Assembly: GCA_963721805.1 (NCBI GenBank)
Contig: CAVRJY010000004.1
Coordinates: forward strand, 256,001 to 320,000
Origin: Nitrospirota bacterium
Lineage (GTDB): Bacteria > Nitrospirota > Thermodesulfovibrionia > Thermodesulfovibrionales > JdFR-86
Direction of reading: 5' to 3'
DNA: 64,000 bases
The notes beneath the pieces are model-generated. The model saw nothing but the letters and a program-made list of their open reading frames with translations. It did no database searches and was not told the DNA's origin. Positions 2,876-55,068 of this stretch are shown here, piece by piece; positions within the stretch are counted from its first letter, which is position 1; every line of letters begins with the position of its first letter. A program made the translations under genes and the position numbers.

Positions 2876-2904
2876 ATAATAGTATTGATTGTACACCATT
2901 GCAA
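2876..2904 (-). promoter_or_regulatory. Putative sigma70 promoter of chemotaxis operon
   Basis: TTGCAA-17 nt-TATTAT on minus strand in AT-rich intergenic region. Confidence 0.4.
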
Positions 2905-2931
2905 GTCCGGTCGAATGTGACCGGCGTCACA

Positions 2932-3909
2932 CTATCCCCCTATTGAGGACATCGAGACGTGGGATGCCCGCTCAGGGCCGTTTGAGAGGTAATTGCCCTC
3001 GGGCTTTGCGATTATAGCGAGGCCGAACAGCCTCGCGAGTTCCGCGTCATCGGCCCCGCGGCGCAGCGGGCCCAGGACGTCGATCTCGGTGCTTGAAAAC
3101 AGGCACGGCCTTATGCGGCCGGCCGCGCTGATCCGAAGCCTGCTGCAGCTTGAGCAAAACCCGTGGCTTACAGGGCTTATGAATCCGACCACGCCAGAGG
3201 CGCCCTTGATCCGGTAGTTTCTGGAGGTCCCGCCCCCCCTGAAAGGCAGCCGCTCCAGCGGCCCGTGCGCGGCCTCGACGCGCCCCATGATCTCAGGGAC
3301 GCGGACGCAGCGCTCTTCGCTCCAGCCCCGCCCGGCCGTGGGCATGAACTCGATGAACCGCACGTGCACCGGCTCTGCCAGGCTGAGGGCCGCAAACTCG
3401 GGTATCTCGCCGTCGTTCACCCCGCGCATCGGGACCATGTTGATCTTGACCGGCGTGAGGCCCGCGTCTTTAGCTGACGCGATCCCCTCAAGCACCCGCC
3501 CAAGCTCGCCGCCGCCCGTTACCGAGCTGAACCGCCCCGGCTCGAGCGAGTCGAGGCTCACGTTTACGCGGTCGAGCCCTGCCGCGGCAAGCGGCCCGGC
3601 CATCGCCCTGAGGCGCGAGCCGTTGGTCGTGAGGCTCAGGTCGCGCACGCCCAGGCGTTTTAAGCAAGAGACGATATCGATGATGTCCGGCCTCACGAGC
3701 GGCTCGCCGCCGGTGAGCCTGATCTTGCGGACGCCGAACCCCAGCGCGACCGAGGCTATGCGGCCGAGCTCTGCCGGGGTGTAGATATCGGCCTCGGCAA
3801 AGCGCGCCGGAGGCGCGGCGGGCATGCAGTAGACGCAGCCCATGTTGCAGCGGTCAGTGACCGATACGCGCAGGTAGTCTATCCTTCTGCCAAATCCGTC
3901 GATAGCCAT
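2932..3909 (-). CDS. moaA: GTP 3',8-cyclase MoaA (radical SAM)
   Basis: YLRVSVTDRCNMGCVYC, LTGGEPL, C-terminal FCSSCSRLR..C cluster and terminal IGG. Confidence 0.95.
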   Translation of the reverse strand: MAIDGFGRRIDYLRVSVTDRCNMGCVYCMPAAPPARFAEADIYTPAELGRIASVALGFGVRKIRLTGGEPLVRPDIIDIVSCLKRLGVRDLSLTTNGSRLRAMAGPLAAAGLDRVNVSLDSLEPGRFSSVTGGGELGRVLEGIASAKDAGLTPVKINMVPMRGVNDGEIPEFAALSLAEPVHVRFIEFMPTAGRGWSEERCVRVPEIMGRVEAAHGPLERLPFRGGGTSRNYRIKGASGVVGFISPVSHGFCSSCSRLRISAAGRIRPCLFSSTEIDVLGPLRRGADDAELARLFGLAIIAKPEGNYLSNGPERASHVSMSSIGG

Positions 3910-8570: not shown

Positions 8571-9481
8571 CTTCCGACCATCCTTATCTCGGGCTCAAGC
8601 TCCACGCCCGCTGCCTCGGCCGCGCGCTGTGCGACCAGGTCCATCAGCCGCCGGAAGTCCGACGCTGTGCCCCGGCCCCTGTTTATGAAAAAATTCGCAT
8701 GAAGCGTGCTCACCTCTATATCGCCGACCCTCGCCCCCTTAAACCCGAGCGTGTCTATGACCTGCCCGGCGCTGAGGTCCGGGGGGTTTTTAAAGACGCA
8801 ACCCGCGGAACGCTCCCCAACCGGCTGCGTGAGTTTCTTTCTCGATAAATACCCGGCCATCCGCTCGCGGATCGCGGCCGGCGCGTCCGTCTTTAGCCTG
8901 AGCCTGGCGCCGAGCACCACAGAGCCCTGCGGGATCAGCGCCCGCCGGTACTCGAAGCGTATCTCGTCGAGCCCGGCCTCTCTTACGCTGCCATCGCGGT
9001 GGAAGATCGTCACGTTCGCGATGAAGTCCTTGATCTCGGCCCCGAACGAACCGGCATTGCCCGCTATCGCGCCGCCGAGCAGCCCGGGTATCCCGGCAAG
9101 CCCCTCGAGCCCGGCAAGGCCCGCACCGGCGGTGTAATTCAGCAGCCTCTGAAGCGGGACCCCTGCACCGGCATGCACCACGGCCGCATCCTCGTCGCGG
9201 GAGATGATTTCCACGCTATCGTTAAATCCCATCGCCAATACCACGCCCTCGATGCCCAGGTCGCTTACAAGGACGTTCGAGCCCCCGCCAAGCGGCGTGA
9301 CCTGCACACCATGGTGGGCCGCGAGCCTCATCAACTCAAGCAGCGCATCGGCGCTGTGCGGCGCGATAAACAGATCGGCCGGGCCTCCGATGCCGAGCGT
9401 CGTATGGCCGGACATCGGCTCCCCTGGCAGCGATGTCGCCTCCAGCGCGCCGAATACCTCTATCAGAGATGCGTCAGCCAT
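8564..9481 (-). CDS. murB: UDP-N-acetylenolpyruvoylglucosamine reductase
   Basis: HTTLGIGGPA, GGGSN, SAGCVFKNP, HANF, LEPEI. Confidence 0.96.
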   Translation of the reverse strand: MADASLIEVFGALEATSLPGEPMSGHTTLGIGGPADLFIAPHSADALLELMRLAAHHGVQVTPLGGGSNVLVSDLGIEGVVLAMGFNDSVEIISRDEDAAVVHAGAGVPLQRLLNYTAGAGLAGLEGLAGIPGLLGGAIAGNAGSFGAEIKDFIANVTIFHRDGSVREAGLDEIRFEYRRALIPQGSVVLGARLRLKTDAPAAIRERMAGYLSRKKLTQPVGERSAGCVFKNPPDLSAGQVIDTLGFKGARVGDIEVSTLHANFFINRGRGTASDFRRLMDLVAQRAAEAAGVELEPEIRMVGRW

Positions 9482-10847
9482 CGCCGAGCTCACGAAGGAG
9501 TTCCTCGCCCGCTGTGTATATGTTCCCGGCCCCGAGCGTCAGCACCACGTCGCCGGACTTCACTATGCCCAGCGCGATGCGCGCTGCCTCGTGCGGGTCC
9601 TTTGCATGATATGTCCCGGCGCCGGACTTGATCTTCCTGATAAGCGCCTCGGCCGTGACGCCCTCTATCGGGCGCTCGCCGGCCGGGTATATGTCGGTGC
9701 ATATGAGCACGTCGGCCGCGCCCTCGAACGCCGAGGCGAACTCGTCCATCAAATCGCGTGTGCGCGTGTAGCGGTGGGGCTGGAATATCACGACCAGCCT
9801 GCGATGGCCGAGCGCGTCCTTGGCCGCCCCGAGCGTGGCCCTGATCTCTGTGGGGTGGTGGCCGTAATCGTCATATACCATGATGCCTTTGGCCTCGCCC
9901 TTGAACTCGAAACGCCGCTGTATGCCCTCAAACCCGGCAAGCGCCTCTTTGATGCGCTCGGCGGGGATTTGAAGCTCGAGCGCGACCGCTATCCCGGCCA
10001 GCGCGTTACGGACGTTGTGCTCCCCGCTGGCAGGGATGCGGAACATACCGAGCTTAACTCCCTTGAACTCGACATCGAAATCCACGCACATAAAACCCTT
10101 CTTCAGGCTGGAGGCGCGGAGGTCCGCGTCGGCCGAGAGCCCGTACGTCAATACCTTGCGGTGCACCATAGGCAGGAGCTCGCGGACGTTCGGGTCGTCT
10201 ATGCAGAGCACCGATACGCCATAGAACGGGACCTTGTTCATGAACTCCAGAAACGCGGCCTTGAGCGCCTCCATCGTCTTGAAGTGCTCCATGTGCTCGC
10301 GGTCTATGTTGGTGACCACGCCTATCGTCGGGCTCAATTTCAGAAAAGACCCGTCCGACTCGTCAGCCTCCGCGACCATAAACTCGCCGCGGCCCAGGCG
10401 CGCGTTCGTGCCGAAGGCCTTCAGCCTCCCGCCTATCACGACAGTGGGATCAAAACCCGCCTTGGCAAGTATCGTTGCGACTATCGAAGTCGTGGTGGTC
10501 TTGCCGTGCGCGCCGGCCACGAGCACCGCGTATTTGAGCCTTCCGAGTTCAGCGAGCATCTCGGCGCGCGGGATGACCGGGATCTGCTGCCTGGTGGCCT
10601 CGACGACTTCCGGGTTGTCCTGCTTCACGGCCGATGAGATCACGACCACGTGCGCGCCGTTTACGTTCTCGGCGCGGTGGCCCTCGTATACCTTTACGCC
10701 GAGGCCGATCAGGCGCTCGGCGCTCTCGCCTATCTTCAGGTCCGATCCCGTGACCTCGTAGCCGAGGTTATATAGCACCTCGGCGATGCCGCTCATCCCG
10801 ATGCCGCCGATGCCTACGAAGTGTATGACCCTGTAGCGCTCAAACAT
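9474..10847 (-). CDS. murC: UDP-N-acetylmuramate--L-alanine ligase
   Basis: IHFVGIGGIGMSG, GAHGKTTT, EADESD, DDYGHHPTE. Confidence 0.98.
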   Translation of the reverse strand: MFERYRVIHFVGIGGIGMSGIAEVLYNLGYEVTGSDLKIGESAERLIGLGVKVYEGHRAENVNGAHVVVISSAVKQDNPEVVEATRQQIPVIPRAEMLAELGRLKYAVLVAGAHGKTTTTSIVATILAKAGFDPTVVIGGRLKAFGTNARLGRGEFMVAEADESDGSFLKLSPTIGVVTNIDREHMEHFKTMEALKAAFLEFMNKVPFYGVSVLCIDDPNVRELLPMVHRKVLTYGLSADADLRASSLKKGFMCVDFDVEFKGVKLGMFRIPASGEHNVRNALAGIAVALELQIPAERIKEALAGFEGIQRRFEFKGEAKGIMVYDDYGHHPTEIRATLGAAKDALGHRRLVVIFQPHRYTRTRDLMDEFASAFEGAADVLICTDIYPAGERPIEGVTAEALIRKIKSGAGTYHAKDPHEAARIALGIVKSGDVVLTLGAGNIYTAGEELLRELGDG

Positions 10848-11946
10848 TGCCGTGCCTCCCGCGGACTAAGGCCACGGCCATGTCGACTACGCGCGCGGCG
10901 GCATCCGGCCGGCCGAGGCTCTTCGCGTTTCGGACCATCTCGGCTCTCGCCTCCTCGCTCGATGCGATCTCGCGTATCACGGCCCCGAGCGACGGGCCGT
11001 CGAGGCGGGAGTCCCATATCACGCGGCAGGCCTCGGCCTCGAGGAGCTTTTTGGCGTTTAGCTCCTGATGCCCGCTCGCGTGCGGGTATGGCACGAGCAC
11101 CGAGGGCTTCCCGAGCGCGGTGAGCTCGGCGAGCGTCGAGGCCCCGGCGCGCGCCACCACGAGGTCGGCCACGGCGTATGCCTCGGCCATTTTATATATG
11201 AAGGGGGCGACCATCGCCTTAAACCCGAACTGCCTGTATGCGGAGCGGACCATGTTGTAGTCAGCCTCCCCGCTTTGGTGCAGAAACTGTATGTCGTCTT
11301 TGAGGTCCGCAAGCGTCCCGAGCGCCCCGGCTATCGCGGCGTTGATGCTGCGCGCCCCGAGGCTCCCGCCCATGATGAACACCGTAAAGCGGCCCTCGGC
11401 GAGCTCGAACAGCCTGAGGGCGGCATCGCGCCTTCCCTTGAGTATCGCCTGTCTGACCGGGTTGCCGGTCAGCCGCGTCCTGTCGCGCCTGAAGAACCCG
11501 GCGCTGTCGTGGTACGTGATAGCGACCCCTGAGGCCAGCCGCCCGAGGAACCTGTTGGCCAATCCGGGCATCAGGTTTTGCTCCATTATCAGTGTCGGGA
11601 TCGCCATGCTCCATGCGGCCACGACCGGAGGGACCGAGACATAACCGCCAGTACCCAGCACGATATCGGGTCTGACGTTGCGGAGTATTTCCCTCGCGCC
11701 GAAGACCGAGAGCCCGACGCCCAACATGGCCGAGAGCTTCCCGGCCAGCGAGCGGCCGAGCACGCCCTCGGCGCGGATGAACTGTATCGGGAAGCCCTCG
11801 CGCGGGATAACGCGCGCCTCGATCCCCCGCTCGGTGCCGATGAACATGACCTCGCCCTCGGGGTCGCGCCGCTTGAGCTCCTCGGCAACCGCGAGGCCGG
11901 GGAATATATGGCCGCCGGTGCCTCCACCGGCGATCACCATCCTCAT
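10840..11946 (-). CDS. murG: MurG N-acetylglucosaminyl transferase
   Basis: GGGTGGH, GGYVS, EQN, GGSLGA, HQELNA. Confidence 0.97.
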   Translation of the reverse strand: MRMVIAGGGTGGHIFPGLAVAEELKRRDPEGEVMFIGTERGIEARVIPREGFPIQFIRAEGVLGRSLAGKLSAMLGVGLSVFGAREILRNVRPDIVLGTGGYVSVPPVVAAWSMAIPTLIMEQNLMPGLANRFLGRLASGVAITYHDSAGFFRRDRTRLTGNPVRQAILKGRRDAALRLFELAEGRFTVFIMGGSLGARSINAAIAGALGTLADLKDDIQFLHQSGEADYNMVRSAYRQFGFKAMVAPFIYKMAEAYAVADLVVARAGASTLAELTALGKPSVLVPYPHASGHQELNAKKLLEAEACRVIWDSRLDGPSLGAVIREIASSEEARAEMVRNAKSLGRPDAAARVVDMAVALVRGRHGNV

Positions 11947-13127
11947 GGCGCCTCCCTGTATATCGAACGCCGGGCCTTCTTGCGCCGAAGCGCCATCACC
12001 GCGTCCGTCGAAGGGTCCTGTCCGAAAGGCATGTGCCTCGGCCTCGAGAGGTTCAGCAGGATGCCTACCGCCGCCATGTTGACGAGCAGCGACGAGCCGC
12101 CGTAGCTCAAAAATGGAAGCGGGAGCCCCTTGGTAGGGAGCATCCCGGTAACGACGCAGAAGTTTAGCATCGCCTGAAGCCCGACCATGATCGAGATGCC
12201 GAATGCCAGGTAGTGGCTGAATTTCTCCTCATTGCGCTGCGCCACGCGTATGCCCCTGATAAACAGGAACGCGAACAGGCCTACAACGATCACCGCGATC
12301 ACAAAACCGAGTTCCTCGCCCACGACCGAGAAGATGAAGTCCGTGTGCGCCTCGGGCAGGAAATCGAGCTTCTGGCGGCTCTTGCCCAGACCCACCCCGG
12401 CGAGCCCGCCGCTTCCAAGCGCGATGAAAGACTGCACTAACTGGAAGCCGCTCCCCGAGGCCTGCTCCCACGGGTTTAAAAACGTGGTCATGCGCTTGAG
12501 CCTGTAGGGCTCCATCGCGAGGTAGACGACCGCCGGGATAGCTAGCGTCATCAGGTATCCTATGTAGCGGAGCCTCACCCCGGCCAGAAACAGCATCGCT
12601 ATCGTGATGAAACCGAGGCTCATCGTCGCGCCGAAGTCCGGCTGTCTTATGCACACCGCCTGAAACAGGGCCATCACGCCTATAGGCACCAGGAAGCTCT
12701 TTAAGCTCTCCGGGTTGAACTTCGGCGACGAGAGGTACTTGGCAAGGAATATCACCATCGCGAGCTTTGCGAACTCCGAGGGCTGAAAGGTCGTCACGCG
12801 CAGGTTCAGCCACCGCCGCGCACCGTTCGCCTTCACCCCGATGCCGGGCACGAAGACCAGCGCGAGCAGGATGAACGCCACGACCATCAGCGCTGTGGAG
12901 TTCTTCCGGAACCACTCGGGCTCGACCCTGTAGAGCCCCATCATTATAAGCGCGCCCATAGCCATCGTGATCAGGTGCTTTTTGAAGTAGTAAAACTCGG
13001 TGATGTTCCTCTTTTGGAAGACCGGGGTCACGACCGAGGTCGAACTCAGGACCATGAGCGTGCCGAAGCCGATGAGGATCAGCGTCACGATCAGCAGCCA
13101 CCTGTCATACCTGTTTATCTGGATCAC
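11943..13127 (-). CDS. ftsW: Peptidoglycan polymerase FtsW (SEDS)
   Basis: GARRW, QPSEFAK, QPDFG, LPEAHTDFIF, LPFLSYGGSS; GTG 13127 overlaps murD stop. Confidence 0.96.
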   Translation of the reverse strand: MIQINRYDRWLLIVTLILIGFGTLMVLSSTSVVTPVFQKRNITEFYYFKKHLITMAMGALIMMGLYRVEPEWFRKNSTALMVVAFILLALVFVPGIGVKANGARRWLNLRVTTFQPSEFAKLAMVIFLAKYLSSPKFNPESLKSFLVPIGVMALFQAVCIRQPDFGATMSLGFITIAMLFLAGVRLRYIGYLMTLAIPAVVYLAMEPYRLKRMTTFLNPWEQASGSGFQLVQSFIALGSGGLAGVGLGKSRQKLDFLPEAHTDFIFSVVGEELGFVIAVIVVGLFAFLFIRGIRVAQRNEEKFSHYLAFGISIMVGLQAMLNFCVVTGMLPTKGLPLPFLSYGGSSLLVNMAAVGILLNLSRPRHMPFGQDPSTDAVMALRRKKARRSIYREAP

Positions 13128-45949: not shown

Positions 45950-46963
45950 ATGCGGATAGAGTTTTTGATATTCGACCTCGACGGCACTTTAGTGGAGACC
46001 TCAGAGGACCTCAGAGACGCCGTAAACCATGCCGTGACGCCCTTCGGCGCTGGGCCTTACGACGCGCCCGCGACGATCTCGATGGTCGGCGCGGGCATCG
46101 GGGAGCTCGTTAGAAAGGCGCTCGGCCCGGCGCAGGCCGGCCATTACGACGAGGCGTTCGCGCTATTTATGGAGTACTACACCGCGCACGTCGCCGACCA
46201 CTCGAAGGCGTACCCGGGTGTGGAGGCCGCTCTGATAGCGCTGAAGGATCTGCGCAAGGCGGTGCTGTCGAACAAAAACGAGGCGCTCTCTAGGCTGCTG
46301 CTCGACAAGCTCGGGCTTTCGAAGCACTTCGACCTGATCGCGGGCGCGGATACGTATGCCGATCTAAAACCCTCGCCGCTTCCGATACTGCGGATGCTCG
46401 CCTCGCTCTCGGTGCCGATCAACCGCGCGATGATGATCGGCGACAGCTCGCAGGACATCGAGGCGGGCAGGCGCGCAGGGCTCCGCACGGTCGGCTGCGC
46501 CTACGGGTTTCGAGGCCGCGCCGCGCTCTCGGCCGCGGACTTCGTGATCGACTCGATCGAGGAGCTTCCGGGGCTGCTCGCCGCATACGAGGGCCCGGGC
46601 GAGAGGCGGAAAGAGGAGCGGCTCCGTCTGCCGGAACCGTTTCGGGAATACCTCAACGCGACCGTGCGCATCGGGGACGAGGACGTGCATGTCGAGGTCG
46701 ACGAACTGAGCGAGCACGGCCTGCGGATCTTCTGCCCGGTGCCGTTTGACGAAGGCACGAAGCGGACGCTGCGCGTCTCGATGCCGCAGTCGCACCAAAA
46801 AGAGGTCGGGATCGAGGCCCTGATCCACCACTGCTCGGACGCCTCCAACAGCACAAGCTTCCGCGCCGGCGGGCAGGTCACGCACGTCGACGACGAACTC
46901 CTCTACAGGGTATTTAAAAACACCTTGAGCTTCATCACGAACCGCGCGGGAAGGGTCTTTTAA
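45950..46963 (+). CDS. HAD phosphatase (phosphoglycolate phosphatase-like) fused to a C-terminal PilZ-like domain
   Basis: FDLDGTL, SNK, KPSP, IGDSSQD; then RRKEER..DELSEHG. Confidence 0.85.
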   Translation: MRIEFLIFDLDGTLVETSEDLRDAVNHAVTPFGAGPYDAPATISMVGAGIGELVRKALGPAQAGHYDEAFALFMEYYTAHVADHSKAYPGVEAALIALKDLRKAVLSNKNEALSRLLLDKLGLSKHFDLIAGADTYADLKPSPLPILRMLASLSVPINRAMMIGDSSQDIEAGRRAGLRTVGCAYGFRGRAALSAADFVIDSIEELPGLLAAYEGPGERRKEERLRLPEPFREYLNATVRIGDEDVHVEVDELSEHGLRIFCPVPFDEGTKRTLRVSMPQSHQKEVGIEALIHHCSDASNSTSFRAGGQVTHVDDELLYRVFKNTLSFITNRAGRVF

Positions 46964-49483: not shown

Positions 49484-50004
49484 CGTCCGCAGCGCGGCAG
49501 CAGGATGCCGACCCTGTCGAGGCGCACGCGGTTCTTCGTGCCGCAGGCCTGGCAGTCGACTATGATGTATTCGGGCTCGGCGGGGGGAGGCTCGGGCGTG
49601 TGCGGGTCGGGAGCGTGCGGGGCATCGAGGGTCGCCATGGCGGGCTCCGGCGCGGCCTCTGGGGGCGCATCGGTTTCGGCCTCGCCATATACGCCGAGTT
49701 CCGCGAGAAGCTCGATGAATCTGGCGTCGCGGCTGGTGAGCTCGACCCCCATCCCGTTTTTGACCATCGCAAAGCTCGTCCTCGTCGAGCGGCGCACGGT
49801 GCCGCTTATCGAGGAGCGGGTGCCGTCAGGGAAGATGAGTTCGATATTGGCCGTGCTGCCGACAGTCATTGGCGTGTGCGTGCGGATGAATATCCCGTGG
49901 GCGGAGATGTTGCTCGATATGCCCCTGATCGTGCGGCCATTCACCGTGAACTCAGCCTCGATCCGGCGCATGTAGCGCTTGCTGTCCTGCCTTTTCTGCG
50001 CCAT
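49456..50004 (-). CDS. PilZ-domain protein with C-terminal CxxC..CxxC zinc finger
   Basis: Arg-rich N-terminus + NISAHG; Pro/Glu linker; CQACGTKNRV...CGRC. Confidence 0.8.
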   Translation of the reverse strand: MAQKRQDSKRYMRRIEAEFTVNGRTIRGISSNISAHGIFIRTHTPMTVGSTANIELIFPDGTRSSISGTVRRSTRTSFAMVKNGMGVELTSRDARFIELLAELGVYGEAETDAPPEAAPEPAMATLDAPHAPDPHTPEPPPAEPEYIIVDCQACGTKNRVRLDRVGILLPRCGRCKAELQLA

Positions 50005-50114
50005 ACCCCCCCCCCGCTACAAAATTGTAACATTTATTTCTAGAGATAGAAATAGGGGTAGTGTGTATGCCATTTCATTCATGGCTTTATTGCTTCATTA
50101 CTCGCCTAAGGTAT

Positions 50115-51122
50115 TTACAGCCTTTCTGTGTTAATATCAGTGCTGGTTACTTTATAGGTAGTTGTCTCTTTGCATCTCACATACCCTTTTTCATTGAAAA
50201 TCACATAATTATCTCCGGTTGTCAATGAACTTTTAAATGTCACCCCATTAAACCCAAGATGCTTAAAGTACTCACAAAGATATTGACTTGGAAGATACTC
50301 AAGTGACGCCTCGCGTGGTAAAACTGGCTTGGAAAGCTCTTCACCAAAACTAATTAACATAGGCCTTAACTCATAAAGCTTTTTTAGATCTTCCTCTCCG
50401 ACTATAAAAGGTGATATTGCATATCTCGGGTTTCTCAGGTCTGCTAGATTTAAATCCTTAACTGATTTAAACTCCGCGACTGTAACGGTATCGCCTTTAT
50501 GAGGGCGCACTTCAGCAATAGCAGTTTTATAGTCAGACGAAGCGTATAGATATGGGATTCCAAAGGGGTTTGCCCTTCCACCTGATGTTTCATCAGAAGG
50601 GGGTTTACTCATTTCAGGGCAAGTATAACTTCGGTCTTCTAGGTTTATCCTTGCGCGAAATAGTTTTTTTGGCGATTCCTCATGTAAGTTGAAAAATAAT
50701 TCATCAAATTGACCGACATCAAATTTCTTTGGAAAATAGCGGTTTGAGTGTTTAAGTTCTTCTCGGAATTCATTCCATTGTATAATTTTACTTTGATCCT
50801 GAGATCTTGCAGGAATATATTTATTCCTTGTGAGCGTTTTGTCTTTAAAAATCTCCGATATAAGGCTGTTTATTGTAGACCTCTTTGGCAGCTTGAAAAT
50901 AGCCCAATCATCCTGAATTTGTTCGCTCAAATATTTTCCTTCAACTCCGTCAGACGTAACATATAAATCAATAATAGGCTGAAACAAATCGGATAGTGAA
51001 CTTGGATAAATTATTGGAGTTTTCTTAGTTCCACAGAATGAGCAGTCACCCTTTCCAATTTTCTTTCTTTTGATGAATTGTGACAGGAAATCATCACTGA
51101 AACATTCAGGGCAACAAAACAT
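50115..51122 (-). CDS. RES-domain protein with N-terminal zinc-binding domain
   Basis: CCPEC..CSFC; GGRANPFGIPYLYAS (R), AIAEVRP (E), FKSS (S); AT-rich. Confidence 0.88.
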   Translation of the reverse strand: MFCCPECFSDDFLSQFIKRKKIGKGDCSFCGTKKTPIIYPSSLSDLFQPIIDLYVTSDGVEGKYLSEQIQDDWAIFKLPKRSTINSLISEIFKDKTLTRNKYIPARSQDQSKIIQWNEFREELKHSNRYFPKKFDVGQFDELFFNLHEESPKKLFRARINLEDRSYTCPEMSKPPSDETSGGRANPFGIPYLYASSDYKTAIAEVRPHKGDTVTVAEFKSVKDLNLADLRNPRYAISPFIVGEEDLKKLYELRPMLISFGEELSKPVLPREASLEYLPSQYLCEYFKHLGFNGVTFKSSLTTGDNYVIFNEKGYVRCKETTTYKVTSTDINTERL

Positions 51123-51125
51123 AAA

Positions 51126-52067
51126 TTACCCCTTTCTCGTGATGAAATCTGCCATTAATTCGATATGGTGTTGCATGGAAAGCTTCTTAATGTATCCAAG
51201 GCCGGGGAAATGCTGTCTTTTATAGAGTTCTAAATATTCCTTAGCTGCGTCTGACTTAAACATGTGTGTGTTATGCCGCGAATATTCTTTGTGCAGTTTT
51301 TCCAATGCTTCGAAAAATTTCCCAGCAGTGTTTGTTGGGCTTTCGCCATGCTCAGAAACGAAATGTCTTATAAACATATCATTGTCATCGTCAATATATG
51401 TCATATGGATAGCCACTGCATATGCAGGGCCGCCCGATGTGCGATATTCATCGCCAACAATCAAAAAATCTCCAAACCCACTCATATTCTCGTCGGGAAA
51501 CGTTACATGTAAGTCGGAGAAATGTTCAACCTCTGGATAATCAATGTTCCTTTTTACATTACTTACATTAAACCCATCTCTAACCAGTACACAATTATGA
51601 TGGCTTTCAAAATGCTTACGATAAAGTTTTCCAGCGCTTTTCTCTCTAAATACATGTCGCTCAATGTGCGACAAGCCGCTTGTTATTTCAGATAAGTGTC
51701 TTCCTTCTTTATATCCATCGTGAATTAAGGTTATCCTCTGCCTTCGTTCAACAAAACTTTTGACATGATTAGGTATGCTTTTTTCGTTAACAATATAGCC
51801 CTTTGACATATTACTCTTGCCAGAGTGCTTATCAGCGAGCTCATCCAACTCAGATGACTTATTTGTTAGGTTGCCAACCTGCGGATTAACTATCAATACA
51901 AATTGAACTTTGCGCTTATTTAGCTCGTCAAGAGTACGTTCAAATGGCGGTGAAATTTCATTAACTGGTTCAATAATAGGGCAAATATTACTCGCGGCTA
52001 GAAGCTCAGCGTTTTCTTTTAAAAGAATTAGTTCGTACTGCTTTCCTCTTAAGTATGGATAGTACAT
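51126..52067 (-). CDS. sce7725-family / phage beta-protein-like protein
   Basis: MYYPYLRGKQYEL, PIIEP, GFGDFLIVGDEY..GGPAYAVAIH, FPGLGYIKKLSMQHH, recognised as characteristic of this family. Confidence 0.8.
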   Translation of the reverse strand: MYYPYLRGKQYELILLKENAELLAASNICPIIEPVNEISPPFERTLDELNKRKVQFVLIVNPQVGNLTNKSSELDELADKHSGKSNMSKGYIVNEKSIPNHVKSFVERRQRITLIHDGYKEGRHLSEITSGLSHIERHVFREKSAGKLYRKHFESHHNCVLVRDGFNVSNVKRNIDYPEVEHFSDLHVTFPDENMSGFGDFLIVGDEYRTSGGPAYAVAIHMTYIDDDNDMFIRHFVSEHGESPTNTAGKFFEALEKLHKEYSRHNTHMFKSDAAKEYLELYKRQHFPGLGYIKKLSMQHHIELMADFITRKG

Positions 52068-52076
52068 TTCGGTTAA

Positions 52077-52961
52077 TTATGCATGGATCTTATTCATTTT
52101 GCAACTGAGAATCTCACAGAACCTATTGGCATACCCTTCATCATTTGGTGATCCAAGCGCTAACGTCTTAAGCGATTTGGGTACACTATCAAGGAACCCC
52201 ATGAATCTTTTTTGATCTCTTCGCTTTAAAGTCTTAACCATGAGATCATGAACTATTTCAGGGGGAATAGCGCTAAACAATTTTTTGCATTCACTATAAA
52301 TTTGCGTATTTGGAACATTTGGTTCGAAGTCAAAGTATTCTCTAACGATCGAAAGATATTCATTCTTTCTAAGTGAATCAAAAATTACGCTAGGCTTCAC
52401 TTGCGTCTTCCCTGAAATGGGGTTCCTTATAGTCTTTAAAGTGTATCTCTCAGTTAGCACTATCAAGCCAATATTCTTTGCTATGACTCTGTCGATCCTC
52501 TCAGCTTGCGATTCAGAAGTTACGACATTTACTAAATCAAAAACACTTGAATACGCAGCGATTTGATTATCCAGCCTATCTAAAGAATCATAATCTGTCT
52601 TAATTTCATAAACTGTTGACGTTCCATTTAAAATAACAACATCTGCCTTGCAGTTGGCTGCTCTAAATTCAGTAAGCATGTATGATGTATTCAAGGAATG
52701 CCTGCCAAGCAATATTTTATTAGTGATAGCATTTTTATATACGTATTCATTCCGATAGGACTTAATAAGGTTATCGTGTAACCATTCAAAGAAATGACTA
52801 ATAGTTTCGCTATAAATATTCTTGGATATGTTGCTATTGGCAATTATTTCGGAAAAATATCTTGATTTGCGAGATTCGACTAAATCATTAATCACTACCG
52901 GTGAAAAAAGGGATGCAAGCGCTGGAAGGGCACTTTCTTCAAGAGAATACTCACGCGTCAT
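52077..52961 (-). CDS. sce7726-family protein, PD-(D/E)xK nuclease-like
   Basis: YRNEYVYKN, TEFR..KADVV..VYEIKT..DSLDRL..Q..Y restriction-fold motif. Confidence 0.8.
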   Translation of the reverse strand: MTREYSLEESALPALASLFSPVVINDLVESRKSRYFSEIIANSNISKNIYSETISHFFEWLHDNLIKSYRNEYVYKNAITNKILLGRHSLNTSYMLTEFRAANCKADVVILNGTSTVYEIKTDYDSLDRLDNQIAAYSSVFDLVNVVTSESQAERIDRVIAKNIGLIVLTERYTLKTIRNPISGKTQVKPSVIFDSLRKNEYLSIVREYFDFEPNVPNTQIYSECKKLFSAIPPEIVHDLMVKTLKRRDQKRFMGFLDSVPKSLKTLALGSPNDEGYANRFCEILSCKMNKIHA

Positions 52962-53074
52962 TCAAAATATTAGTATATAAATACTAATGAAATCAATTAG
53001 CGCAAATAAATTATTGGCAATACCGTGCTTCTGCCATTTGTATGCTTCTTGTGGTTCCCTTTTACACCCCGGTC

Positions 53075-54274
53075 TGTAAAGGTTACGCTCTTACCGGACA
53101 GTATCAGGCTGGAAAAAGCAGGCGGCAGCCAGCCCTTCCATCGGTTAGAATGTTTCACCACAAAACACAGACCGAAGGAGGAAGGGCATGACTGCCAAAG
53201 AAAAGATATCACAAGGGAGGCTTTCAATGCTTCAGCTGGCCGAGAGGCTCAGGAACGTGTCGGAGGCCTGTCGCCGCCGGGGGGTGAGCCGCAGCCAGTT
53301 TTACGAGTACAAGCGGGCGTTTCAGGAGCAGGGGTTTGCGGGGCTCGCGGACCTTCCGCCGATAGCGCGTAGCTGTCCCCACAAGACGCCTGAGGAGGCC
53401 CGCAAGCGAGTGATCGAGATGAGCCTTGCTCACCCCCGGTGGGGGAAGCAGCGCATCTTCGAGCACCTGCTTCTGGAGGGCATATTGGTGCGTCCCTCAA
53501 CTGTGTATCGCATCCAGGTTCGCGAGGGGCTGGAGTCGAAGGCCAAGCGCATCCTCCGGCTTGAGCAGGAGGCTAACGGCAAGGAGATCGAGCTAACGGA
53601 GGAGCAGGTCAAGCTCATCGAGCGGGCCAATCCGTGCTTCAGGGAAAGGCATGTGGAGAGCGCATATCCGGGCTATCTGCTCAGCCAGGACACCTTCACG
53701 GTGGGCAAGCTCAAGGGCATCGGGACCGTGTATCTGCAGGCCGTGGTGGACACGTACGGCTCTTATGCCTTCGGCAAGCTGTACACGTCGAAGAGGCCCG
53801 AGACGGCGGCCGACGTGCTCTACGACCGCGTGCTGCCGTTTTACGAGAACCATGGCATCAGGGTCCAGCATGTCCTGACGGACAACGGCTCGGAGTACTG
53901 CGGCAAGCTGCTGCGGCATCCGTACGAGCTGTTTCTGGCGCTTCACGACATCGCGCATCGAAGGACGAAGGTGGCGACACCGAGGACAAACGGATTCGTG
54001 GAGCGGTTTAATCGCACCATCCTGGACGAGTTCTTCTCGGAGACGTTCAGGTACCGGTTCTACGCATCGCTCGATGAGCTGCAGTATGACCTCGACCGGT
54101 GGCTGCACCACTACAACAACGAGCGCCCTCACAAGGGCTATCGCAACATGGGCAGACGGCCAATAGAAACTATCGAGCTGGGCAAAAAGCTAAGACAGAA
54201 AGCTGAGGAGGAGGCCGCCTGATCAGTGCGACCGATGAGATGGAAAACTGTCCGGAGAGCACTGGACTTTTACA
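53075..54274 (+). mobile_element. IS481-family insertion sequence (1200 bp)
   Basis: TGT...ACA ends; 28-bp imperfect IRs (TGTAAAGG...CCGGACAGT vs TGTAAAAG...CCGGACAGT, 20/28); single DDE transposase. Confidence 0.88.
53188..54222 (+). CDS. IS481-family transposase
   Basis: HTH (NVSEACRRRGVSRSQFY), QDT..DTYG, TDNGSEY, TNGFVERFNRT, YNNERPH. Confidence 0.95.
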   Translation: MTAKEKISQGRLSMLQLAERLRNVSEACRRRGVSRSQFYEYKRAFQEQGFAGLADLPPIARSCPHKTPEEARKRVIEMSLAHPRWGKQRIFEHLLLEGILVRPSTVYRIQVREGLESKAKRILRLEQEANGKEIELTEEQVKLIERANPCFRERHVESAYPGYLLSQDTFTVGKLKGIGTVYLQAVVDTYGSYAFGKLYTSKRPETAADVLYDRVLPFYENHGIRVQHVLTDNGSEYCGKLLRHPYELFLALHDIAHRRTKVATPRTNGFVERFNRTILDEFFSETFRYRFYASLDELQYDLDRWLHHYNNERPHKGYRNMGRRPIETIELGKKLRQKAEEEAA

Positions 54275-54316
54275 CTAGGAACTGGTTCCTAGGAACTGGT
54301 TCCCAGGAACCAGTTC
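54275..54316 (+). repeat. Three tandem 14-bp quasi-palindromic units
   Basis: CTAGGAACTGGTTC x2 then CCAGGAACCAGTTC. Confidence 0.85.
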
Positions 54317-54362
54317 CCATGGCGCAGTTCCGACCTGTTGGTTTATCATCGCGCATGATAAT

Positions 54363-54540
54363 GGCAGACTCTAAAAATAGCATCCTGCTGCGAGGGGCTC
54401 TGATCGCGGCATCCTGTGTCATCGGGACGAAAAACGTACTCAACGTAGCGCTGCTACGCCTCCGTTCCTTTTTCGCCCGCTTCCTTGTCTGCCACAATCT
54501 CGCTCCCTCTCGCTTACGAATACTATTTTCAGAGGCTGCC
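54363..54540. repeat. ERIC/MITE-like fold-back element
   Basis: 22-bp terminal IR (18/22), nested IRs, central CGTAGC-GCT-GCTACG hairpin. Confidence 0.65.
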
Positions 54541-54627
54541 TGTATACAGACTAATTTAGCGAGGTCGGAGATCGGGAGCGCCAAGCGCTCGATGGCTCGT
54601 AGAAATGGTTTGAGTGCTCGGCTGGCG

Positions 54628-54859
54628 CATCCGAACAAAACCCCAAAAACAGGCCAAAACATCCGAACATCCGAACACGGGCAAAATCAAAAAACTCGGT
54701 TTTCCGCTGGGTTACGCCCTATTTTGCGCCCAACATCCGAACAAAATCGGCAAAAACGCGCACGCACGCGCGCGGAATGCATATGTATACCTAAGCGCGA
54801 GCATCCGAACGGGCTTTTTCAGATCATGCCGTTGACCATTCCAATCATGCCGTTGACCA
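54628..54859 (+). repeat. Dispersed direct repeats (5x CATCCGAAC; 2x ATCATGCCGTTGACCA)
   Basis: 9-mer at 54628, 54660, 54668, 54734, 54802; 16-mer at 54823 and 54844. Confidence 0.85.
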
Positions 54860-55068
54860 CGAGGCGCGGAGGCAGCGGCTGGGCCGCGTACTTCGCCAAG
54901 CGCGAGAAATCGTGTCAGACTAGGAACGGCGAGGAAAACGTCCGAGGTGTACTGAGACGTACATTGAGGACGGATTTCCGAAGCCGTGACAACGTATCAC
55001 GCGAGTTTCGCGCGCTTTCCAAAAGGCTCCAATTGCATTCAACGAGTTCCGCCCGATATAATCGCACG

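Follow-up and report, generated by a model that had tools for sequence, protein, structure and literature searches.

A mobile sce7726-sce7725-RES gene cassette in a Nitrospirota genome, a candidate RES-effector variant of the Gop-beta-cII class

A three-gene cassette encoding a nuclease, a TIM-barrel protein and a protein with a RES domain was analysed in a 64,000-nucleotide window from a Nitrospirota bacterium (GenBank assembly GCA_963721805.1, contig CAVRJY010000004.1, positions 256,001 to 320,000 of the forward strand; coordinates below are those of the window). The three open reading frames (ORFs) are intact and follow one another in tandem, all minus-strand: gene 1, the nuclease (52077-52961, 294 amino acids, aa), gene 2, the TIM barrel (51126-52067, 313 aa), and gene 3, the NTD1-RES protein (50115-51122, 335 aa), with gaps of 9 bp between genes 1 and 2 (52068-52076) and 3 bp between genes 2 and 3 (51123-51125). 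They occupy an island of about 3 kb (50040-53074, edges read from the sequence) with a guanine-plus-cytosine (GC) content of 0.325-0.407 in 400-nt windows over positions 50000-53199, against 0.62-0.70 on the left flank and 0.56-0.62 on the right. An IS481-family insertion sequence (IS) with a transposase and inverted repeats (53075-54274, plus strand) abuts the island. A first-pass annotation, made from the sequence alone, had described tightly packed co-oriented genes of sharply lower GC than their flanks, inserted among housekeeping genes next to an IS481, and all of these features were confirmed. Antisense overlaps excepted, the island holds no other ORF of at least 60 aa and therefore no Xre-type antitoxin gene, again as that annotation had stated.

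Gene 1 encodes an sce7726-family PD-(D/E)xK nuclease, the family of cII from satellite phage P4. It scored 195.4 bits (cut-off 70, E 8e-58) against the NCBIfam hidden Markov model (HMM) sce7726_fam NF033832, matched the PADLOC model 'cll' (PDLC02989) at E 1.9e-23 and was aligned with P4 cII by BLASTP at E 2e-13. P4 cII itself is labelled 'sce7726 family protein' in RefSeq and matches the PADLOC 'cll' model at E 3e-113, and the 'gop' and 'beta' models match P4 Gop and P4 beta. The first-pass annotation knew of no mechanism described for such a cassette, yet relatives have been described: the sce7726 family includes P4 cII, the 'cll' model recognises gene 1 and Gop-beta-cII is a validated system. 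The nuclease-type motif noticed at first sight was borne out: E98, D107 and E119-I-K121 are invariant across 16 homologues, and the AlphaFold model (predicted local distance difference test, pLDDT, 91.2) resembles PD-(D/E)xK enzymes, with 3dnx on top (Z 9.8, root-mean-square deviation, rmsd, 5.0, 143 aligned), followed by PaqCI (Z 8.4) and XisH-like, Can2 and NucS structures (Z 6.6-7.4). The protein consists of an N-terminal helical extension, the nuclease core and a C-terminal helical SAP/HeH-like region, in which residues 184-250 weakly resemble DNA-binding helices of that type (Z 4.6-5.8); a profile search with gene 1 matched nothing but an unrelated helical region (E 0.006). The sce7726_fam model recognises P4 cII (151 bits), a convergent nuclease next to a Pfam Beta_protein gene at locus L024 (183), gp32 of Gordonia phage Powerball (146) and gene 1 (195), so that members of a single nuclease family accompany barrels of the beta type as well as of the sce7725 type.

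Gene 2 matched the NCBIfam model sce7725_fam NF033831 with 320.5 bits (cut-off 60, E 1.5e-95), so that both HMMs of the sce7726/sce7725 pair are above their curated cut-offs in adjacent genes 9 bp apart. No Pfam family was found for it, and a sequence search of the PDB gave 0 matches. Its structural model (pLDDT 86.3, predicted template modelling score, pTM, 0.88) shows a TIM barrel followed by a C-terminal hairpin and three helices, and aligns with many solved TIM barrels at Z 10-12. The longest alignments were obtained with archaeosine tRNA-guanine transglycosylase (1iq8; Z 11.6, rmsd 4.4, 239 residues) and with Cap10 (9ntn; Z 10.8, rmsd 4.2, 228 residues). Foldseek against the PDB returned generic TIM barrels only (best E 7.9e-4, query TM-score, TMq, at most 0.43), and no transglycosylase stood among the matches listed.

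The first-pass annotation had likened gene 2 to an 'sce7725/T4 beta' family; the sce7725 assignment stands, and the beta protein in question belongs to satellite phage P4 and not to T4. BLASTP found nothing between gene 2 and P4 beta, and a 17-sequence gene 2 profile reached P4 beta alone at E 0.1, over the N-terminus only. Comparison of 20 sce7725 members with nine Beta_protein members including P4 beta by hhalign gave E 3.7e-5 and a probability of 71% over 303 collinear columns, spanning both proteins end to end with the common motifs YxP..R/K..E, FGD and HH; a smaller sequence set gave E 0.0014. In a Foldseek search of BFVD, the gene 2 model matched best a protein from Gordonia phage Powerball (379 aa; E 2.4e-7, TMq 0.65). 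This entry is presumably Powerball gp33, which is also 379 aa long; gp33 scores E 5e-37 on Pfam Beta_protein, and a convergent gene of the sce7726 family overlaps its gene. Moderate statistics together with a strong gene context suggest that gene 2 is a remote homologue of P4 beta.

RES domains are ADP-ribosyltransferase-fold toxins, of which MbcT degrades nicotinamide adenine dinucleotide (NAD+) and ParT ADP-ribosylates its targets. Gene 3 matched Pfam RES PF08808 at residues 162-313 (E 1.5e-16, 61.2 bits against a gathering threshold of 23.2) and HEPN_RES_NTD1 at residues 22-130 (E 1.5e-7), giving a layout of an N-terminal zinc ribbon and NTD1 (about residues 1-130) followed by the RES domain. 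The cysteine motif and intact R-E-S residues reported earlier proved to be invariant in 16 homologues (C4, C7, C27, C30, R183, E204 and S298), as were R156, R158 and G182-R183-x-N185-P186. Every homologue begins with M-x-C-C-x-x-C, and the four cysteines C4, C7, C27 and C30 fit a zinc ribbon. A gene 3 profile aligned weakly with the ParT RES toxin (E 0.075) through the GR.N..G...Y and E motifs; the arginine and glutamate would be equivalent to those of ParT by this alignment, and the serine by its motif. In the Atlas, the closest clusters bear the name 'RES family NAD+ phosphorylase', with proteins of about 340 aa. Gene 3 scored 13.9 bits against the NCBIfam model Res_ParT_toxin, far from its cut-off of 110, and shared no similarity with Gop by BLASTP or hhalign, nor did it match the PADLOC gop model.

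Like the RES-Xre pairs MbcT/MbcA and ParT/ParS, gene 3 has a RES domain with an Arg/Glu/Ser signature, but here no Xre/DUF2384 gene is present and the RES protein carries the extra zinc-ribbon NTD1. A RES-Xre toxin-antitoxin assignment was rejected for want of such a gene in the island and of any helix-turn-helix (HTH) domain in genes 1 and 2. The notion that NTD1 serves as a dedicated TIM-barrel adaptor was likewise dropped on account of eight NTD1-RES genes with no barrel or nuclease neighbour. The lone NTD1-RES proteins (L049-L053, L055, L059 and L061) have 360-440 aa, and several follow a conserved-looking upstream ORF of about 300-370 aa.

The cassette is conserved as a unit. All 18 loci fetched through gene 2 contain the whole triplet, in unchanged order and with every gene on one strand, which answers the question of triplet conservation raised in the first-pass annotation; one gene is cut by a contig end in five of them, and gene 2 is split into two ORFs in L017. 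These loci come from Neomarinimicrobiota, Victivallaceae, Bacteroidales, several deltaproteobacterial lineages, Shewanella, Xanthomonas, Gallionellaceae and Fibrobacter. Among 401 genomes sampled from the phylum of the host, the NF033831 model found four positives, each with the triplet, and only two of 41 close relatives possess it. A second, Pseudomonadota-centred sample of 401 genomes around a Shewanella gave seven positives, with all three genes in five (among them L046, whose RES gene is cut short by an IS), a contig-end cut in one and a divergent member without partners in one. The divergent sce7725 member at L047 (123 bits) has neither partner gene. A search with a family profile among 1.84 billion proteins gave 1,532 representatives of clusters at 50% identity with E<=0.001, and 750 with E<=1e-30. 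The family is genuine, widely distributed and rare.

The spacing of genes 2 and 3 is at most 4 nt, or the genes overlap, in most related loci, and the GC content of the cassette is below that of its surroundings in most of them. Pairwise identities of the three proteins over 13 complete loci are strongly correlated (r 0.87-0.95; none of 2000 permutations reached the observed value), and the tightest co-diverging pair is that of genes 1 and 2 (r 0.95). This correlation implies inheritance as a unit and is not proof of physical interaction. Homologues of gene 2 occur in 15 plasmid records. On a Moraxella plasmid the triplet is named sce7726, sce7725 and 'RES family NAD+ phosphorylase' in RefSeq and stands beside a Tn3 transposase, and on a Salmonella integrative conjugative element it stands beside an integrase. 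The earlier suggestion of a horizontally acquired, three-component conflict cassette is supported by this conserved triplet and its mobility. At L062, from Salmonella enterica subsp. houtenae (2876-3841 and 9240-13006), the triplet has a caspase-like gene ('ICE-like protease p20') on one side and on the other the integrase, which is followed by integrating-conjugative-element genes of the PFL_4703-4705 family.

Several related loci are surrounded by defence genes. L002 and L016 are clear defence islands, in which the neighbours of the triplet include type I restriction-modification specificity subunits, PDC-S01 and a UG19 reverse transcriptase. PADLOC-positive neighbours (E<=1e-6) amounted to 13 of 47 ORFs and were found in eight of 17 related loci, a raw count given without a background rate. 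In L046 (2448-2916), the RES gene matches over about its first 46 codons and then gives way to an IS3-like orfA encoding an HTH protein, while the nuclease and barrel genes are whole; judged from the sequence, the toxin gene appears to have been disrupted by an insertion sequence.

The effector position around the barrel varies. On Enterococcus faecium plasmid p114-2 (L063, 3108-5513), the gene after the sce7725-family gene encodes a GNAT acetyltransferase in place of RES, and the ORF before it is not matched by the sce7726 profile. A record deposited as 'Listeria phage LM 4-14-1' (L065, OR848224.1, flagged UNVERIFIED_ORG) is at least 99% identical to p114-2 over nine ORFs, and because of this near-identity to an Enterococcus plasmid it is probably no Listeria phage. 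Pfam Beta_protein genes were found in seven of the 401 own-phylum genomes with an HTH-peptidase M78 gene upstream, and in five of these seven loci a short convergent sce7726-family nuclease lies downstream. At L025 (78-3828), an HTH-peptidase M78 gene and a Beta_protein gene are followed by a different RES protein of 437 aa in which no NTD1 was detected; RES is therefore coupled to both barrel subfamilies. Gene content across these loci indicates a conserved barrel, usually with a cII-type nuclease, that is coupled to interchangeable effectors.

Two relatives of the cassette have been studied experimentally. The gop-beta-cII genes protect Escherichia coli from lambda and P1, and Gop is toxic without beta, according to Rousset et al. 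2022 (PMC9122126), through which the first description of Gop and beta as a toxin and its neutraliser is also cited (Ghisotti 1990). A phage gene triggers cell death via Gop-beta-cII, as stated in a later preprint (Silas et al., bioRxiv 10.1101/2023.04.06.535777). In PD-lambda-2, the third component, 'related to a P4 phage antitoxin' in the wording of the published text, is required for defence (Vassallo et al. 2022, PMC9519451). The name TIM-B for the beta domain, and its relation to deazaguanine transglycosylases, come from a preprint dated 22 October 2026 (bioRxiv 10.64898/2026.10.19.760177). That work is computational only, already lists a RES-family toxin among the TIM-B-linked effectors and takes PF14350 as the definition of TIM-B; sce7725 and sce7726 are not named in its text (0 occurrences of 'sce77'). 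By titles and abstracts, the listed papers that mention sce7725 or sce7726 are all genome or omics reports; among the literature matches listed, PF14350 occurs only in the 2026 preprint, and 'RES-NTD1' and 'PF18870' in none.

The present cassette shares with Gop-beta-cII of P4 a mobile three-gene organisation, a cII/sce7726 nuclease, a beta-like TIM barrel and an effector gene, predicted to be toxic here, adjoining the barrel gene. It differs in its effector, a 335-aa NTD1-RES protein instead of the 133-aa small membrane toxin Gop, and in its barrel, an sce7725 subfamily that the Pfam Beta_protein and PADLOC beta models miss. The TIM-B systems likewise place a beta-like TIM-barrel domain beside a variable effector, which is RES or GNAT in the sce7725 loci seen here; their nuclease has helical extensions and a C-terminal HeH, and in gene 1 the core matches at Z 9.8-6.6 and the C-terminal region only at the weaker values given above. 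PD-lambda-2 has a Beta_protein-family third component where the sce7725 barrel stands here, and HTH-peptidase plus Beta loci occur in the same phylum; the PADLOC PD-Lambda-2_C model matches the Beta_protein of L024 at E 9e-58 and does not match gene 2. Its partners, a HigB-like protein and an Xre-peptidase fusion, are absent here, and RES is absent there. Cap10, a deazaguanine transferase that modifies a CD-NTase (9ntn), offers a further parallel as a TIM-barrel regulator of a defence effector, a role that is predicted for gene 2; no QueC-like partner gene is present here, and the alignment score is tied with those of unrelated TIM barrels.

Taken together, these comparisons point to a RES-toxin variant of the validated Gop-beta-cII/PD-lambda-2 class and not to an orphan system. 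We consider it rather probable that the locus is a mobile three-gene conflict module of the Gop-beta-cII class, most likely acting in anti-phage abortive infection. In the uninfected cell, the gene 2 barrel, as the counterpart of P4 beta, would hold the gene 3 effector in check. Infection would lift this control, and the freed RES domain would consume NAD+ or ADP-ribosylate an essential target, so that the infected cell stops growing. The NTD1-RES protein would thereby stand in for the small Gop toxin, and the nuclease with its putative DNA-binding tail may act as a second effector or a DNA-directed arm. Defence activity and neutralisation of RES by the barrel, whether by binding, by a product or modification that the barrel makes enzymatically, or by both, are inferred, as are the trigger and the RES chemistry. 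The mechanism draws its support from the kinship with validated systems and the near-zero spacing of genes 2 and 3; conservation of the triplet, the swappable effector, the experimental precedent and the defence genes near part of the related loci also speak for this reading. The earlier idea of an sce pair that detects or cleaves foreign DNA and governs an NAD-consuming effector is plausible; for its part, the beta protein of the validated relatives acts as a regulator or neutraliser and not as a DNA sensor.

Structure prediction of a gene 2-gene 3 complex, another check suggested at the outset, yielded 'weak support': the score was 0.41, against 0.00 for the best of three controls, with at least 92% of contacts agreeing between runs and a partner pLDDT of at least 83. 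Of 157 solved complexes 116 passed the mark, as did two of 215 mismatched pairs; with a score of 0.60 or less, it was passed by only 18 of the 157 and by both of these mismatches.

Several observations weigh against this reading. Nine of the 17 related loci have no PADLOC-positive neighbour in the raw count given above, and the cassette studied here lies among housekeeping genes with only the IS481 alongside and no defence island. PADLOC, proposed earlier as a check, recognised gene 1 as 'cll' and matched neither gene 2 nor gene 3, and no Pfam family was found for gene 1. Gene 2 gave no match to Pfam Beta_protein PF14350 or PADLOC beta at E<=0.1, HMM-to-sequence searches cross in neither direction between the sce7725 and Beta families, and the evidence for their homology is confined to profile-profile and structural comparison; gene 2 is graded a 'remote' homologue because single-sequence and HMM-to-sequence comparisons do not cross the two families. 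The Z scores of 1iq8 and Cap10 are tied with those of many unrelated TIM barrels. The nuclease gene comes first and is co-directional here, whereas it is convergent and overlapping in P4; it is also convergent in Powerball and in five of seven Beta_protein loci. Eight own-phylum loci contain NTD1-RES with no sce7725, Beta or sce7726 ORF within 1.5 kb, and the experimental precedent, as we read it, comes from non-RES members only. Moreover, the beta homologue of PD-lambda-2 is not needed for toxin neutralisation (PMC9519451), and 'antitoxin' may therefore be the wrong role for the barrel.

An unlikely alternative is that the three genes form a tripartite, toxin-antitoxin-like addiction module that stabilises its mobile elements and plays no part in phage defence. 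The triplet is found on plasmids, within an integrative conjugative element and next to IS and Tn elements, which agrees with this account, as do the toxin-antitoxin style coupling of genes 2 and 3 and the original description of Gop and beta as toxin and neutraliser (via PMC9122126); the RES gene cut short by an IS in L046 would fit a costly toxin. Yet both tested relatives protect against phages, several related loci sit among restriction-modification and other defence genes, and the third conserved gene, the nuclease, would be superfluous for simple addiction.

Within the abortive-infection reading, the manner of silencing could also be chemical, and the sce7725 barrel could be an active transglycosylase-type enzyme that silences the RES toxin by its reaction and not by simple binding, a proposal we regard as doubtful. 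The barrel would attach a nucleobase-like group to the zinc-ribbon module of the toxin or make a small-molecule inhibitor, infection would stop this continuous 'safety' reaction and unleash NAD+ destruction, and the cII-type nuclease would be under the same control. If true, beta-type barrels would constitute a general enzymatic dead-man's switch for interchangeable effectors.

Quite improbable is a restriction-modification-like pair, in which a DpdA-akin barrel marks the DNA of its own cell, the cII-type nuclease cuts unmarked DNA and RES serves as a back-up suicide effector. The tightest co-divergence being that of genes 1 and 2 would suit such a pair, as would the same nuclease family beside both barrel types, the longest gene 2 alignments with archaeosine transglycosylase and Cap10, and the tie between TIM-B and the deazaguanine transglycosylase family drawn in the preprint (10.64898/2026.10.19.760177). 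Those transglycosylase Z scores are, however, tied with many unrelated TIM barrels, and barrel systems without a nuclease exist, namely PD-lambda-2, the E. faecium sce7725 gene with GNAT, and L047. P4 beta, too, neutralises a membrane toxin, which has no link to DNA marking (PMC9122126). A decaying, non-functional passenger of an IS-flanked island, to which the small isolated island beside IS481 and the lack of promoter or terminator signals above chance might point, is highly improbable because all residues invariant in 16-17 homologues are kept, and the three frames are intact, of full length and spaced as in functional-looking relatives.

Compared with the Gop-beta-cII/TIM-B class, the novelty of a candidate member of this kind would lie in the combination of a RES effector, an sce7725 barrel subfamily and a co-directional nuclease. 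To our knowledge, the role of the beta/TIM-barrel protein is unexplained in the validated Gop-beta-cII and PD-lambda-2 systems. The activity of a RES effector, whether NAD+ loss or ADP-ribosylation, is easily measured, and the clade would be a convenient system in which to ask whether the barrel neutralises by binding, small molecule or covalent modification, and what the nuclease adds. Its usefulness is increased by the way the triplet has stayed together and co-evolved closely in several phyla. The family is under-annotated because the HMM sets used for finding defence systems see one gene of the three, the nuclease.

The transposase of the adjoining IS481 (53188-54222, plus strand) scored 270 bits against NCBIfam transpos_IS481 (cut-off 224) and contains Pfam rve and HTH domains, and the element ends in imperfect 28-nt inverted repeats (53075-53102 and 54247-54274, 71% complementary). 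The flanking genes are housekeeping-like and encode ComF/GntX-like, MBL hydrolase, damage-control phosphatase, PilZ, MenG/UbiE, ArsR and Kup proteins. No tRNA gene was found at the island and no convincing direct repeats bound it. PilZ-ComF synteny is kept in seven relatives and the opposite flank is not; the insertion site could not be reconstructed because that flank is unconserved and identity to the relatives in these proteins is only about 30-50%. In G003, the triplet and the PilZ gene lie on separate contigs. A scan for promoters and terminators found 11 and 4 sites, where 9.3 and 2.7 would be expected, and so nothing above chance. No RNA entry was listed among public sequencing runs.

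An inverted repeat with perfect arms of 8 bp around a spacer of 4 nt (ATTAGTAT-ATAA-ATACTAAT, 52969-52988) precedes the start codon of gene 1 by 8-27 nt and could be an operator, or a product of chance in AT-rich DNA. Beyond the cassette, about 750 bp between IS481 and menG/ubiE (54226-54990, GC 0.53-0.54) hold no convincing gene and many short repeats, including four CATCCGAACA-type units and a 21-nt tandem at 54818-54859; a 14-nt tandem CTAGGAACTGGTTC lies within nested palindromes at 54275-54331. The ORF at 49456-50004 matches Pfam PilZ (E 2e-08), and its C-terminus gives a weak zinc-ribbon match of 19.1 bits, below the cut-off of 27.1. In the ORF at 45950-46963, the NCBIfam match covers the HAD phosphatase part alone (about residues 1-210), and the C-terminal third, read by eye from the translation, may be PilZ-like.

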